Below, in pieces: positions 7,672 to 52,081 of a DNA stretch of 64,000 bases. Position numbers and translations under genes: made by a program. Each line of letters begins with the position of its first letter. Within the stretch, counting starts at the first letter, position 1. This stretch comes from a virus, in the IMG/VR virus record IMGVR_UViG_3300032213_003144, positions 96,001 to 160,000 of that record; one strand, given 5' to 3'. Under the pieces are notes generated by a model, which saw only the letters and a program-made list of their open reading frames with translations, did not search any database and had not been told where the DNA came from.

Positions 7672-8232
7672 TCACCTGTCAGCATTTGGTGGCGATTCAA
7701 AGAATGGCCCAGAAATACCCTCTTTCCCGGATGGGGCCTCTATCGGGACCCATGCACGAGCATAGTTGTGTTCTTTTATCTTTCGCACTTTTATCAGACT
7801 GCTGTCAAGCATTAACGATAACTCATCAGATTTCATGCACAACATGTCATCAAAATCCTGGTTCGTGTAGCGACCTGACCGTTTCATCTCGCGAACTATT
7901 TTTGAAAGCTTTGCTGCAACAATGACAGATTTTCCTCGATTTAGCTGAATGTGCATCATCATTGCTTCTAGCTTGTCGCAATCATGGAATACAACAGGTA
8001 TACGATTGCCGTGAATTTCAGATATTTCAGAAATACTCATAAATAGGTTGTATCTCTCCGAACCATCTATTATCTCGCCAGTCTCCCTCCGTGCGTGTAT
8101 TGGGTGTATGAACCCATGCTGCATTAAGGATGAAGAAATTACGAGCAGCTCAGGTCTAATCGTGTATGTTGTCTTCCAATCTGGGATAACGAGCGAGCCA
8201 GCACTAACCCATTCAATTTTTATTTCTTTCAT
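7672..8232 (-). CDS. ParB/Srx-domain protein (IbrB-like)
   Basis: GFIHPI...EIIDGSER...LNRGK; degenerate DG(H)xR motif. Confidence 0.75.
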   Translation of the reverse strand: MKEIKIEWVSAGSLVIPDWKTTYTIRPELLVISSSLMQHGFIHPIHARRETGEIIDGSERYNLFMSISEISEIHGNRIPVVFHDCDKLEAMMMHIQLNRGKSVIVAAKLSKIVREMKRSGRYTNQDFDDMLCMKSDELSLMLDSSLIKVRKIKEHNYARAWVPIEAPSGKEGISGPFFESPPNADR

Positions 8233-9356
8233 AGTTCTAGTTCGCTTTCAATTATTCTCACTGCATTTGCTTTGGTCTTTGGTCCAACAGGGGTCGGCGA
8301 ATTAACATCTATCTCATTGAGCATGAGATTTCTTATTAACCAAGAAATCGGATATCCATATGGGTCCTGAATATGTTTTTTTCTAAACTTTGAAACATAA
8401 ACACGCGCTTCCATTTTTCTTCTATCGCCAACAAGATACTCTTCAATAAACTCAGATGCACCATCAAATCCTCTACCAGAGTATCTGGCAATAAGGCTTT
8501 CGCTGTCAAATTCAGGCCACCACCTTCGCTGCGCGTCGATGAACGGGAAGCACTCCCAAAGCCTGTCATAAAATTCTGGCTCAGTAGCAATAACATCGCC
8601 TATCCTTCTGATTGCTGTTGCATGGAGCGGTATCCCAACCCTCGTATTACTACCAGTAGCTACCGCCAAGTCGTAGTACTCACAGTATTCGGCTCCGTGT
8701 TCTTCTGTTATGAACTTAAATACGTCATTCGTATTCCAGTCATAAATTACTTTTGCAAATTTAAGAGGAATTCCAGCCTTGAGTTTATATGGAGTATTGA
8801 TGTAATTTTCGTGCAGTTTCTGGACTACGGAGCGATATCGCACCATTGACTCACTAGCCCTAACTCCTGTAAGAAACGCAACATTGCCCTTTTTACCCTG
8901 CATCGTGTAGTAGTCGGTTTGTTCAGGGAGAGACGTACTATGCGATAGACCAAAGTGGTTACCGTTGATAGCAAACTCTGGCATGTCTCTTAGCCATCTT
9001 TGCTGCTCGCCTCTTTGCTCACTCCATAGGATTGTTGTGAGCCTATATCCAAGAATCCAAATTTCAGCAGGGTATGGCAAGCAGTACCACTCCATATCAA
9101 CCCAGTCGTAGTTCCTGACCTTCTCAACGTATTCAACAACGCTTGGGCTCACCATCTCTTCGTCACGGAAAATAACTTTTACCGGACCGAGTCCTCTTTC
9201 TTCGTGCACTTCTTTGGCTAGATAGAGAATTGCTGTTGAGTCTTTCCCACCAGAAAACTGAACGCACACCGTGTCGAACTGGTCGTAGACATGCCTAATA
9301 CGCTGTCTTGCAGCATCCACGCATGTCATATCTAGGAATAATCTCTGTCTAGTCAT
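8229..9356 (-). CDS. PAPS reductase-family protein (IbrA-like)
   Basis: PP-loop FSGGKDS, GVRASES..R and IYDW motifs. Confidence 0.9.
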   Translation of the reverse strand: MTRQRLFLDMTCVDAARQRIRHVYDQFDTVCVQFSGGKDSTAILYLAKEVHEERGLGPVKVIFRDEEMVSPSVVEYVEKVRNYDWVDMEWYCLPYPAEIWILGYRLTTILWSEQRGEQQRWLRDMPEFAINGNHFGLSHSTSLPEQTDYYTMQGKKGNVAFLTGVRASESMVRYRSVVQKLHENYINTPYKLKAGIPLKFAKVIYDWNTNDVFKFITEEHGAEYCEYYDLAVATGSNTRVGIPLHATAIRRIGDVIATEPEFYDRLWECFPFIDAQRRWWPEFDSESLIARYSGRGFDGASEFIEEYLVGDRRKMEARVYVSKFRKKHIQDPYGYPISWLIRNLMLNEIDVNSPTPVGPKTKANAVRIIESELEL

Positions 9357-10162
9357 GGTGTGTGCTCTGAGATAAATGAAATTAATTTCTCAGCAACAGT
9401 GTCACCTTCCAATCCTGCGTCAGAACGTAGCCACTTTATGAACGTATACCACTCAGCTTGTTGCTGAGTGTCGTCAAAAACTATTGTGTACTGAACAACA
9501 GCCTGTGGTGCCGAGCGAGGGGAAACCGTGGTTGAACCCCTAATCACTGCGTCGTTCTGGTCGACTCCAGGACGAACATTTATTTGCTGATTTCCATCTT
9601 TGTCTTTTGTTATTGAGACGGTATTTAGGTCGACCGACGTGTCTTTCTTTACTTTTTCTTCTTCTTCTTCTTCTTTAGAAAAAATAATTGGTGGAACGTA
9701 TTTGTCCGAACCAAGAACTTGATACTCTTCCCTGATTGATGTCTGTTCAAATTCTGCAATCTCGAACTCATCCCATCCAAGACTGTCAACGAGCTCTGGA
9801 TACTCTTCGTGAATTTCAAGGATGAACTCACTTAGCAATTCCGCTTCTGTGTAGCCAAGCTCCATTGTTCTGTTGTCGGCAATAGCAAATGCAATCGCCT
9901 TCTTATTGTCAACGTCATAGCTAACTGCTGCTATCTTGTCCCATCCAAGAAGTTTTGCTGCTTCTAGCTGATGGTTACCCGCAATAACTGTTGCCGTTCC
10001 ATCGTCGTTTGGGCGAATAACAATTGGTTTTATCTGCCCAAATTCTTTATATGAAGCCATGATTGACTGGACGTTACCTTTTCTTGGGTTTCCCTCAAGT
10101 GGAACAAGTTTGTCGACATCAACAGCAAGTTGCTTTAATGATTCGTGAATTTTATCTGACAT
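9353..10162 (-). CDS. ParB/Srx N-terminal domain protein
   Basis: NPRKGN...FGQIKPI...IAGNH...AIADNRT. Confidence 0.85.
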   Translation of the reverse strand: MSDKIHESLKQLAVDVDKLVPLEGNPRKGNVQSIMASYKEFGQIKPIVIRPNDDGTATVIAGNHQLEAAKLLGWDKIAAVSYDVDNKKAIAFAIADNRTMELGYTEAELLSEFILEIHEEYPELVDSLGWDEFEIAEFEQTSIREEYQVLGSDKYVPPIIFSKEEEEEEKVKKDTSVDLNTVSITKDKDGNQQINVRPGVDQNDAVIRGSTTVSPRSAPQAVVQYTIVFDDTQQQAEWYTFIKWLRSDAGLEGDTVAEKLISFISEHTP

Positions 10163-10164
10163 AG

Positions 10165-10500
10165 TTATACCTGTGTTCTGACGTTTGCATTGAGTGTTCT
10201 CATTGCGTCAATTGATGTTCTTAGGGATAGAAGTAATTCTCTCTTCGTTTTAACTAACGCCTCTGCGCACCTGTAGTCAAAATTTTGCTCGTCCATCTTG
10301 TAGTCCGCCCAAGCTTCTCGCTCCTTGATTGAACCCTTCGCGGATAAATATTCGCGAGCCCATGTTGACTTATAGAGCGCATCTTTTTTTGCAGCGTCCA
10401 TCGCTAAGGTTTCAAATTTTTCTGTTTCTGTTTCAAGTCTGTCTATTAGTCTTATAAGCTCTTGTTCAATTTCTACCTGGCTTATGGGTGATGTTCTCAT
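10165..10500 (-). CDS. Coiled-coil protein, UvsY-like recombination mediator candidate
   Basis: Start set to ATG 10500, which overlaps the ruvC stop (TAATG); helical 111 aa; function inferred from context. Confidence 0.45.
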   Translation of the reverse strand: MRTSPISQVEIEQELIRLIDRLETETEKFETLAMDAAKKDALYKSTWAREYLSAKGSIKEREAWADYKMDEQNFDYRCAEALVKTKRELLLSLRTSIDAMRTLNANVRTQV

Positions 10501-11027
10501 TATTCCCCTTTTTTCTCGATTGGCGTCCAATCTACCTTGGCTAGGGCATCCATGTTCTGTGCCGGCCAATTAAATCGTGGTTTACCTATGTGGGCCAAGC
10601 CCATCTCCTGCAGAACCCACGCGTCACATCTGTCATCAGCTCCAGGATTTTGCCAAACAATTCCAGTACGTGCTGATATAGACGAAATCACTTCATTTTT
10701 TGATGCGTTTCCTTTTCCGGTTGCAAACTTTGCTCGACACGTTGGGGGTATCGTTACGTAGGGAATTCCAATTTGCCACAGCAGTAGGCGAATCACCCCA
10801 CCGAGCTCTCCAATAGAGAAAGCCTGACCGCTGCGTGAAGCAAACGAGTAACCCTCAAGCATGACGGCCTTTACCTCGTATCTATTGATTAGGGATTCTA
10901 TTTCCCTTTTTACTAGCCAGAGTCTTTCTGGTCCAGACTTATTAAAAGAGATAACTCCAGATTCGTCGCCAAACGCATACCCAGTTGATGTTAGGGATAG
11001 GTCTAGTCCAAGAAAATCGTTTATCAC
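10500..11027 (-). CDS. ruvC: RuvC-like Holliday junction resolvase
   Basis: LGLDLSLTSTG, MLEGY, KFATGKGNASK, DDRCDA. Confidence 0.9.
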   Translation of the reverse strand: MINDFLGLDLSLTSTGYAFGDESGVISFNKSGPERLWLVKREIESLINRYEVKAVMLEGYSFASRSGQAFSIGELGGVIRLLLWQIGIPYVTIPPTCRAKFATGKGNASKNEVISSISARTGIVWQNPGADDRCDAWVLQEMGLAHIGKPRFNWPAQNMDALAKVDWTPIEKKGE

Positions 11028-11044
11028 AGTGACATACTAACCTA

Positions 11045-11085
11045 AAAGCAAAAACCCACCGAACATCCAGCGAGTTCGGTGGGTT
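11045..11085 (-). terminator. Intrinsic terminator
   Basis: 12-bp perfect inverted repeat 11053-11064 / 11074-11085, followed by U-rich sequence on the - strand. Confidence 0.8.
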
Positions 11086-11198
11086 AAATTCGAACCGTTT
11101 GCGGCGGCTCAGAATCATTGCCGTGTAGGAACACTCGACTCTTGGACCACCGCCTTTCTTCCGTGAAGGGTAGATATCGGCTAGACGAATTAAGGTTA
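11045..11198 (-). ncRNA. Predicted structured small RNA with a 16S 3'-end complement
   Basis: -10-like TAACAT at 11210-11205; closing stem AAUUCG(ucu)AGCCG / CGGUUCGAAUU; contains AGAAAGGCGGUGGUCCA; ends in a terminator. Confidence 0.55.
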
Positions 11199-11254: not shown

Positions 11255-11298
11255 AAAAAACGCAAAAGCCGAGTGAGTCTCCCCACCCGACTTTCGCG
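11255..11298 (-). terminator. Intrinsic terminator with GNRA loop
   Basis: CGCGAAAGUCGGGUGGG-GAGA-CUCACUCGGCUUUUGCG-UUUUUU; fully paired only on the - strand because of four G-U pairs. Confidence 0.85.
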
Positions 11299-11318
11299 CC
11301 TATAACGGTCCTAAGAAT
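11255..11318 (-). ncRNA. Predicted ~60-nt RNA antisense to 23S rRNA helix 69
   Basis: -10-like TATCGT at 11328-11323; then CUUAGGACCGUUAUAG (11315-11300); then a 17-bp hairpin with GAGA loop and U6. Confidence 0.65.
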
Positions 11319-11374
11319 TACAACGATACACCCGTACTAAATAGTGAAAGTGTTAATTATAAAACTATAAATAA

Positions 11375-11716
11375 TTATCTTTCCCAGCCATGTTTTGCTA
11401 ACCCTAAATCAAACGCAAGTTGAGGGTAATTACCAATTCTTACGTGACACAGCCTGCAAACTGCAAGTACATTTTCCTCATCAAGTATGGAGCCACCCTG
11501 AGAGCGTCTGATTATTTCGTGAACATCCCTACTGAGATGTTGGTTGTATGTCGTCTTGCCGTCGTGAGTTGCAAAAACTTTACAAGCCTCGCATGCCGGT
11601 CTTTCCCTTAGTATTTTTTCAACAAACTTACGCCGTTCGACATAAATCTCTTCGGTTTTTGCACTTCTTTTTTTAGGAGGGCCACTTCTCTTGATTGGTT
11701 TGTTTCTTCGAATCAT
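11375..11716 (-). CDS. HNH endonuclease
   Basis: CEAC...DVHEII.RSQGG...ENVLAVCRLCH. Confidence 0.85.
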   Translation of the reverse strand: MIRRNKPIKRSGPPKKRSAKTEEIYVERRKFVEKILRERPACEACKVFATHDGKTTYNQHLSRDVHEIIRRSQGGSILDEENVLAVCRLCHVRIGNYPQLAFDLGLAKHGWER

Positions 11717-50080: not shown

Positions 50081-50155
50081 TGGAGCCCTCTCTCGGGATT
50101 GAACCGAGGACCACCTCATTACAAGTGAGGTGCTCTACCACTGAGCTAAAAGGGC
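50081..50155 (-). tRNA. tRNA-Thr(UGU)
   Basis: Canonical cloverleaf; anticodon arm CCTCA-CT TGT AA-TGAGG; encoded CCA. Confidence 0.95.
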
Positions 50156-50234
50156 TGGACACGCAGTCTGGGAGTCGAACCCAGAGACCGTCCGTTAGAT
50201 TCCACGGGTGCTCTACCGCTGATGCTTCTGCGTG
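50156..50234 (-). ncRNA. Aberrant tRNA-like RNA
   Basis: 7-bp acceptor stem with TCCA end and a TTCGACT loop, but A at position 8, bulged D stem, 8-nt anticodon loop GGAATCTA and 6-bp T stem. Confidence 0.7.
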
Positions 50235-50270
50235 CGTAAGAGAGTAACACAAATGGGGACAGGAGGGGTT

Positions 50271-50516
50271 CTAACCCTGCCCAACTTTTGAGTTTATTAA
50301 CTCCAGGGCTTTGCCAACGGTGTCTACGCCTTCAATCTCGGAGCCGGCAACGGTAACGCCAAACTCCTCCTCTAAAGCCATCACTAATTCTATGATGTCA
50401 AGAGAATCTGCGTTTAGGTCCTCCACAAGTCTTGCTTCTGGGACTATTTTTGATTCGTCAACAATGAGAATTTCTGCGGCGCATTTTATAAATCGCTTTT
50501 CTGTGTTATCGCTCAT
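50271..50516 (-). CDS. acpP: Acyl carrier protein
   Basis: EDLNADSLDIIELVMALEEEFG with the phosphopantetheine-attachment Ser; start ATG 50516. Confidence 0.9.
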   Translation of the reverse strand: MSDNTEKRFIKCAAEILIVDESKIVPEARLVEDLNADSLDIIELVMALEEEFGVTVAGSEIEGVDTVGKALELINSKVGQG

Positions 50517-50535
50517 GTTTAACAGTATATACATA

Positions 50536-50611
50536 TGGCTGGCGAGGTAGGGCTCGAACCTACGACAAGCGGATTAACAGTCCGCTGCTCTGCCAACTGA
50601 GCTACTCGCCA
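50536..50611 (-). tRNA. tRNA-Asn(GUU)
   Basis: Cloverleaf; anticodon arm GCGGA-CT GTT AA-TCCGC; encoded CCA. Confidence 0.95.
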
Positions 50612-50725
50612 CCGTGAGGGTAGACAGAGTCAGTTTCAGCACCACCTAGATGGATGCCCCCTCGTATTGCATCATAGCAATAGTAAGTCTTATTACCAGG
50701 ACTTACAATTGATATAATTACAAAT

Positions 50726-51307
50726 ATGGAAACACAAAATTCAATAAAAGACGTTGTTTTGATGGATTCAGATGGGAAAGTTAATTTAATCGACGAGATT
50801 TCTGGGAAGGTAACTCTTTTTGCGAACGTTACTGGGCACTGTGGCAATGCTGAGCAGTATGGGATTCTGGAAAAGGTTTATCAAAAGTATAAGGACAGAG
50901 GTTTTGAGGTTATTGCCGTTCCCACGAACGACTACTGCGGAGCAGGTGTAACTTATGGCAAATACGAAAACGGCATAACCGGAGCGAAGGATGCCGAAGA
51001 ATACGGACGAGCAGAGTGGAACGTCACATATCCGTTCTCTGAGATGGTTGTTTCCCGGGAAGCTCGTGATGGGGAAGAAGAAAAGCCAGATGTTCACCCC
51101 CTATACAGGAACTTAAATCCAGAGGGAGAAAAGGCTCCAATGAACGGTAACTTTGAGAAATTCTTAGTCGACAGAAATGGCCTACAGAGAGTTAGGAAAG
51201 CAAATGGGGTTTTGCTTTGGTGGGCTCACCGTGATGGGTATTGCGAGTCACCAGAAAAAGAATACGAGAACCTATGCAACGACATAGAGCGTCTGCTTGA
51301 CGAATGA
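50726..51307 (+). CDS. Glutathione peroxidase-like protein
   Basis: NVTGHCG, AVPTNDY, HPLY..L, NFEKFLVDRNG. Confidence 0.85.
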   Translation: METQNSIKDVVLMDSDGKVNLIDEISGKVTLFANVTGHCGNAEQYGILEKVYQKYKDRGFEVIAVPTNDYCGAGVTYGKYENGITGAKDAEEYGRAEWNVTYPFSEMVVSREARDGEEEKPDVHPLYRNLNPEGEKAPMNGNFEKFLVDRNGLQRVRKANGVLLWWAHRDGYCESPEKEYENLCNDIERLLDE

Positions 51308-51313
51308 CTATAC

Positions 51314-51985
51314 CTAAGGGCAGTTCATTCCATTCTCAACCCAAGCCTTATATGTAACTGGCATCTTGTCTGCAAAAATAGCCTCAACAGACTTTGCGTA
51401 CCTTCTAATATCAAGCTGAGCAGTTTTTGATAAACGCAAAGAAAGAAAATTCATTAAAGAACGAGCATTAACAGTCCAGTAAAACTGTGTGTACATTCCG
51501 ACTGGAAGAACCGTCCTTGATAGTTCTTTCGCAATACCAATATCTATAAGTTTTTTATATGCTTCATAAGCGCTGATGTTGGCTTGATTTATTATTTCTA
51601 TTGCTTGATTGGCAATGTCTTCTTCAACCATGTGAAACTCGTAGGCTCCTGGCTTTCCGACTTGCGACCTAACATCGTTTTGGTAAGGGACGAAAAAGTC
51701 TTCCCCTACTTCGCTGTATCTTGCTGAAAATTCGTTGAATGAGCCAATCCTGTGCCGAAACCACTCCCTAGCAACAAATACTGGACATTTAACATGAAAG
51801 CGAAATGAATTGTGCTCGAATGGGGTTCCATGTTTTTCGCGCATGAGGAAGTTGATTAAACCTCTACCCGAATCATCCATCTCTTGCTGGGACTTAGCAA
51901 ATGAAACTCTTGCCGAATTAACGACAGAGATATCATCTGCCATACACGAATCAAGACGAACGAAACCAAAACTCTGTGATTCCAT
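51314..51985 (-). CDS. thyX: Flavin-dependent thymidylate synthase
   Basis: HGTPFEH, RHRIGSFNEFSARY, NARSLMNFLSLR. Confidence 0.97.
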   Translation of the reverse strand: MESQSFGFVRLDSCMADDISVVNSARVSFAKSQQEMDDSGRGLINFLMREKHGTPFEHNSFRFHVKCPVFVAREWFRHRIGSFNEFSARYSEVGEDFFVPYQNDVRSQVGKPGAYEFHMVEEDIANQAIEIINQANISAYEAYKKLIDIGIAKELSRTVLPVGMYTQFYWTVNARSLMNFLSLRLSKTAQLDIRRYAKSVEAIFADKMPVTYKAWVENGMNCP

Positions 51986-52004
51986 CTTTTTCCTTTTCTA
52001 GTTA

Positions 52005-52081
52005 TGGCGCGCCGGGTAGGACTTGAACCTACAACCTACAGATTAGAAGTCTGTTGCTCTATCCGATTGAGCTACCGACGC
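52005..52081 (-). tRNA. tRNA-Arg(UCU)
   Basis: Cloverleaf; anticodon arm ACAGA-CT TCT AA-TCTGT; encoded CCA. Confidence 0.95.

Follow-up and report, generated by a model that had tools for sequence, protein, structure and literature searches.

The locus of the predicted small RNA

The window analysed here is a stretch of 64,000 nt from the genome of a virus (170 kb in total; IMG/VR record IMGVR_UViG_3300032213_003144, positions 96,001 to 160,000). In it, a gap of 348 nt, with an HNH endonuclease gene on one side and a ruvC-like gene on the other, both on the minus strand, contains a unit that occurs as a single copy in the genome. This unit consists of a short sequence complementary to 23S rRNA (from here: the seed) and a hairpin. 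The features of the locus are the following:

10500–11027, minus strand: RuvC-like resolvase gene, the downstream neighbour, probably leaderless and with its own −10 box
11045–11186, minus strand: RNA2, a separate structured RNA with its own −10 box at 11198–11193
11255–11316, minus strand: predicted small RNA of about 62–64 nt, starting at 11316 or 11315
11255–11260, minus strand: U-run (U6) 3′ of the hairpin, here an intrinsic terminator
11258–11301, minus strand: hairpin of 18–20 bp directly 3′ of the seed, with a GAGA tetraloop at 11278–11281
11300–11316, minus strand: seed, the complement of 23S rRNA 1914–1930 (helix 69 loop and 3′ strand, junction to helix 70)
11323–11328, minus strand: −10 box TATCGT (TAnnnT), 7 nt upstream of the seed
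11351–11356, minus strand: upstream promoter hexamer TTAACA, 22 nt upstream of the −10 box
11375–11716, minus strand: HNH endonuclease gene (phrog_15522), the upstream neighbour

The 16-mer at 11300–11315, which the initial annotation had recognized as 23S rRNA sequence, is present in the E. coli 23S rRNA (position 1908, RefSeq annotation) and corresponds to positions 1914–1929 in the standard numbering. Base 11316 adds a U-G pair with G1930. The TATCGT element noted earlier on the minus strand is located at 11328–11323, and the leaderless genes of this phage begin 6–7 nt after their TAnnnT boxes. The start of the RNA was therefore placed at 11316 or 11315, which makes the seed its 5′ end. The hairpin (11301–11258) has a fold z of −6.0. 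It had been described as a GNRA-capped terminator of 17 bp; the GAGA cap and the U-run hold, while the stem is 18–20 bp long. As had been proposed, G-U pairs fix the orientation, with seven of them on the minus strand versus none on the other strand in the near-identical relative L081. In many relatives, the U-run is weak or absent. The 5′ arm of the hairpin (window 11258–11299, minus strand) holds 7 nt identical to 23S 1945–1951 (helix 71), and the 3′ arm could therefore pair with helix 71; the conservation of this stretch is moderate and not significant alone.

A look for expression gave one weak metatranscriptome match, with two low-depth RNA contigs that carry no strand information and one of which ends inside the seed; a transcript of the unit was not seen in these data. 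Of 50 distinct relatives, 38 have a hexamer resembling TTAACA at 21–22 nt upstream of the −10 box. The promoter layout with a 22-nt spacer also precedes the major capsid and sheath genes of the phage. The long-spacer pattern is not clearly enriched genome-wide, so that a late timing is only suggested. In two other scaffolds with the same seed (L367 and L152), the genes immediately preceding the element encode a virion structural (capsid-like) and a tail tube protein, a placement that suggests late and abundant expression. Hence, the RNA may be a middle or late product.

Conservation and distribution of the seed

No exact match between the phage genome and host-type rRNA operons is longer than the 16-mer. 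According to our own estimate, about 0.27 matches of 16 nt are expected between a genome of 170 kb and rRNA, i.e. about one-in-four odds. The initial annotation had cautioned that a lone 16-mer match could arise by chance, and such a match alone is indeed not surprising; conservation therefore had to decide. Relatives were collected through ruvC synteny, without using the seed. Among the first 80 ruvC loci, 70 carried the exact seed and four a single A>G change, which lies opposite U1923 and retains a G-U pair, while the unit was missing in five and truncated in one. In 40 distinct syntenic copies, 15 of the 16 seed positions were invariant whereas the flanks were variable, and TAnnnT was located exactly 7 nt before the seed in 38. 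The pairing of the hairpin was intact in 368/368 cells, and 12 of 16 pairs showed compensatory changes, although the hairpin sequence itself varies freely. Its fold was more stable on the minus strand in all 68 copies compared. An alignment of the relatives showed only the −10 box, the seed and the pairing to be conserved. The base preceding the seed can pair with G1930 in 55 of 56 copies of the window's class; the pyrimidine at this position may also be attributed to promoter preference.

These data led us to reject a chance match, as the conservation was observed in a set selected by synteny. A seed absent or divergent in syntenic relatives had been named beforehand as the observation that would speak against a functional element; instead, the seed was kept nearly invariant. 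The pattern also supports the earlier view of the predicted minus-strand transcript of about 60 nt as an anti-helix-69 seed plus a hairpin. More distant relatives lack the unit cleanly, with the gap collapsed, which marks the seed-hairpin unit as accessory.

A search of phage genomes for the seed followed by a terminator, suggested as a check in the initial annotation, revealed the same seed in other scaffolds of unrelated phages. Our pattern searches located it in at least 119 viral stretches plus 27 others. These group into 16 flank clusters with 90 distinct elements in total; most clusters have no neighbouring genes in common, and one probably represents chance. In class B, the complement extends to 23S 1941 with G-U changes only (11/11 distinct copies), and in other groups it extends to 1933–1936 or 1910–1912. 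Since the search pattern did not require any extension beyond the seed, these extensions are the best independent evidence for rRNA as the partner. In yet another group, the terminator loop contains the complement of about 1930–1938. The 735-kb phage L257 (LR756501.1) has a C>U seed change opposite G1922 together with a matching change in its own hairpin. All observed seed changes are wobble-compatible. When the other actinobacterial helix 69 type was used as a control pattern, three matches resulted, all unstructured. No homolog of the window's scaffold was found in the cultured-phage collection.

In cellular genomes (596 billion bases), the pattern gave 53 matches, nearly all of them in coding sequences or rRNA variants; thus, it is chiefly a viral element. 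In Myxococcus and uncultured deltaproteobacteria (L238:2493, L252, L240 and L246), intergenic regions of the chromosome contain elements with 23S 1914–1934 in sense or antisense. In L238, L252 and L240 the 1904–1912 stretch appears roughly 100 nt further on, so that the order is swapped, and the element of L240 lies between a gene that by eye resembles TROVE/Ro60 and tRNAs.

The initial annotation had noted an anti-16S element about 140 nt away, and the end of RNA2 was measured at 140 nt. The RNA2 core (11143–11160) is complementary to the 3′ end of 16S rRNA; in every one of the 33 distinct copies listed, it pairs with the 16S end of the host type. The pairing has one interruption, always at the same place (a bulge or mismatch at U1537/C1538). 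RNA2 had no Rfam match. The 5′ end of RNA2 is complementary to 16S 1524–1532 as well and pairs with a matching segment of the RNA2 terminator hairpin; covariation was apparent on visual inspection. Both RNAs are present at 41 distinct loci, only the anti-23S RNA at 31, only the anti-16S RNA at three, and neither at eight. Found together in 41 and apart in 34 distinct loci, the two RNAs are companions rather than one obligate system. The proposed pair of RNAs against both ribosomal subunits therefore stands insofar as RNA2 is conserved and keeps its 16S pairing, but the two are separable.

A different RNA occupies the same HNH-ruvC slot in L290 (1345–1495) and L288. Its 5′ part is complementary to 23S 1939–1951 and, overlapping, to the 16S 3′ end (−29.3 kcal/mol). 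The 23S match was equalled in 3 of 300 shuffles, and both target regions are MazF-mt3 sites.

Probable pairing with 23S rRNA and the probable host

On host-type 23S rRNA, the seed duplex reaches −26.9 kcal/mol, at an opening cost on naked RNA of 4.7 + 1.9 kcal/mol, of which 1.9 belong to the seed; on naked RNA, the duplex is thus strongly favoured. The best site in the phage's own genome, as a possible off-target in cis, yields −18.8 kcal/mol; the perfect complement is rRNA. Judged from the sequence, the RNA is very probably transcribed and would bind to 23S rRNA.

The phage carries two WhiB genes, the usual marker of Actinobacteria phages (PMC10914622), which indicates a host among the Actinomycetota; WhiB similarity was too weak for host placement. 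Helix 69 occurs in two common types in Actinomycetota. One matches the seed exactly; the other, found in many Actinomycetota, has two mismatches and a duplex of −17.0 kcal/mol. The genomes G053 and G093, which are marked unpublished, entered this tally only as rows, and none of our conclusions depends on them. The six best matches of the phage SSB among 39 genomes all belong to one 23S clade, at weak similarity (best 51% identity), and 10 of 11 members of this clade have the exactly matching helix 69. The clade appears to be the Acidimicrobiia. The seed would match exactly in the likely hosts, a lineage of Actinomycetota whose helix 69 is of the E. coli type. In five of the six genomes with the best SSB matches there was no RlmH match; U1915 is therefore probably free of N3-methylation and able to pair.

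Seeds compensating for variant helix 69 sequences were not found in viral contigs. Ten metagenome candidates for such seeds lacked a hairpin, appeared chance-like and were discarded. With no variant-adapted seed found, a true covariation between host and phage does not appear to be supported; the target is nearly universal and hence permits little covariation.

Possible roles of the RNA

Starting from the observed anatomy, strand, conservation and complementarity of the gene, we infer with less assurance which particle is bound and what follows from binding. The explanation that we favour, albeit tentatively, is a protein-independent antisense RNA that binds helix 69–70 in 50S subunits that are immature or idle and withdraws these subunits from use. 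The phage would transcribe the RNA of ~63 nt, the free 5′ 17 nt of which would pair with host 23S 1914–1930 without a dedicated phage protein. Pairing would probably nucleate on the helix 69 loop (1914–1919) and then invade the short stem and the junction with helix 70, while the hairpin would terminate and protect the transcript. The target stretch is open as long as the 50S subunit is nascent or immature, still partly so in the free 50S, and buried in translating 70S. New and idle large subunits bound in this way would be taken out of use and exposed to host rRNA decay. As a result, host ribosome production would be curbed, nucleotides would be freed, and ribosomes on phage mRNA would be spared. 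Helices 67–71 are unstable in 45S pre-50S particles (PMC3737534), and rRNA decay acts on free subunits, in which the 23S rRNA is cut at 1942 (PMC4931109). The inhibition of E. coli growth by a PNA against helix 69 (PMC7038079) is also in line with this explanation. Against this explanation, each 50S subunit is briefly free in every translation cycle, so that selectivity is not assured, and the hints of middle or late expression fit poorly with an early shut-off of ribosome production.

Shine-Dalgarno sites precede 99 of 168 phage genes (59%; control 22%), including the major capsid and portal genes, and leaderless genes are enriched as well (24 of 168 versus 3.6% in the control). No RNase III or hibernation-factor gene was found in the phage. 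Since the phage needs ordinary initiation, a general ribosome block or a switch to leaderless translation would hurt the phage itself. This bears on a rather unlikely variant of the same pairing, in which mature ribosomes are the main target: subunit joining would be blocked at bridge B2a and, together with the anti-16S RNA, translation would be throttled or re-biased, e.g. to leaderless phage mRNAs. The seed does span the exposed helix 69 loop, the leaderless genes and the consistent pairing of RNA2 with the 16S end are in line with this variant, and synthetic antisense is inhibitory: a PNA against helix 69 is described, in a review's account, as inhibiting the growth of E. coli (Kulik et al. 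2017, reviewed in PMC7038079). Yet a general block would strike the many phage genes with Shine-Dalgarno sites, which also makes the steering of ribosomes to leaderless phage mRNAs unlikely, and the anti-23S RNA occurs without RNA2 at 31 distinct loci. Moreover, longer family members extend to helix 70, which is packed in the mature 50S subunit. The analysis of this locus thus weakens the leaderless model.

It is unlikely that the RNA is protective, masking or mopping up the rRNA stretch against host ribonuclease toxins or binding broken 23S fragments. Mycobacterial MazF toxins cut both regions in question, helix/loop 70 of the 23S and the anti-Shine-Dalgarno sequence of the 16S rRNA (PMC5408214); the late-type placement and the same-slot RNA of a distant relative, with its complementarity to 23S 1939–1951 and the 16S end, are also in favour. 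But the seed ends at 1930 and leaves the MazF site near 1940 uncovered, and helix 69 tied up in a duplex of 17 bp should already disable the subunit. We also considered the RNA as a splint across a fixed break at A1913/C1914 and rejected this, because other seeds extend to 1910–1912; the break signal arose from the search filter, and the "bridging" bases mostly belonged to a UUCG-type tetraloop. This idea is also weakened by the fact that Ribocin does not cut E. coli ribosomes.

That the RNA guides an enzyme to 23S rRNA or rDNA, be it the adjacent HNH protein or another nuclease or modifier of phage or host, is very unlikely, even though the seed-plus-hairpin layout is guide-like and HNH and RuvC genes flank it. 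The initial annotation had considered a guide or decoy linked to the HNH gene; we reject this link, because HNH and ruvC are retained without the RNA in relatives, including a 91%-complete genome (no seed at two mismatches), and the seed occurs in other lineages with no HNH gene nearby. Among the neighbouring genes in the searched flanks, no protein is common to the unrelated lineages. The RNA is not co-inherited with a dedicated nuclease gene, as would be expected of a HEARO/OMEGA RNA. The hairpin sequence is free to vary, no conserved box motifs as in TIGR-type or box guides flank the seed in the alignment of relatives, and Rfam had no family match at gathering score.

A function in DNA, as an I-CeuI-type homing-site decoy or remnant or an attachment site, or as a sense-strand mimic of helix 69, is scarcely plausible: the 16-mer is part of the I-CeuI site and some deltaproteobacterial chromosomes hold a similar stretch in sense or antisense, but the match ends at 1929–1930 in the window's class and the right half is missing (the full recognition sequence extends to both sides of the cut), wobble-type changes and the fixed −10 spacing fit only a minus-strand RNA, the hairpin is more stable on that strand, and a sense copy lacking the helix 69 5′ strand is unable to fold as helix 69.

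In its own promoter, unpaired selected 5′ seed and 3′ hairpin, the antisense RNA resembles trans-acting base-pairing sRNAs of bacteria. It is an independent non-coding unit, and its conserved, accessible seed shows pairing-compatible variation. Unlike these sRNAs, which target mRNA, it would be directed from phage against host at a universal rRNA centre through 17 contiguous pairs. The PNA shares its helix and the pairing principle but is man-made; the phage RNA would be its natural, phage-encoded counterpart. The box C/D and H/ACA guides of pre-rRNA in archaea and eukaryotes are likewise small RNAs with 10–20 nt of rRNA complementarity, which includes the helix 69 region. In contrast to them, the phage RNA belongs to a bacterial virus and has no box motifs, Rfam match or partner protein found. 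The toxins MazF-mt3 and MazF-mt6 (PMC5408214) and Ribocin (PMC13189344) also attack helix 69/70 at the subunit interface, with MazF-mt3 hitting the 16S anti-Shine-Dalgarno sequence in addition; they are proteins, whereas the phage RNA would recognize its target by pairing. In the literature, mostly its open-access part, we found no description of such a phage RNA. To our knowledge, the known small RNAs of bacteria and phages act on mRNAs or proteins.

We consider it quite probable that many unrelated phages encode antisense RNAs to the ribosome core, binding helix 69–70 of the 23S rRNA, frequently accompanied by another RNA directed at the 16S 3′ end, and steering assembly, joining or turnover without a protein; the 63-nt gene would be the minimal working form. 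The locus presents this form, one 5′ seed and one hairpin, in an actinobacterial phage family, with a calibrated start site and a probable host with an exact match. If this is true, a natural RNA aimed at the universal centre of rRNA would be a new route of viral takeover and an evolved counterpart of antisense antibiotics. The target is identical in the E. coli 23S rRNA, which makes the 63-nt gene directly testable in that species. The RNA would also provide a tool to study the late folding of helices 68–71, which is poorly understood, and the way in which ribosomes become committed to decay.

Several further features were observed. At 7672–10162 of the window (minus strand), a triad of ParB-like, PAPS-reductase-like and ParB genes possibly forms a DNA-modification module. 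Three tRNA genes, Thr(TGT), Asn(GTT) and Arg(TCT), are located at 50081–52081 (minus strand). Outside the window, at 2335–27122 of G000, about 58 copies of the 13-bp motif CTAATAGATAACT occur on both strands with at most one mismatch; this region consists of small genes, and the motif is probably an early promoter or regulator site.
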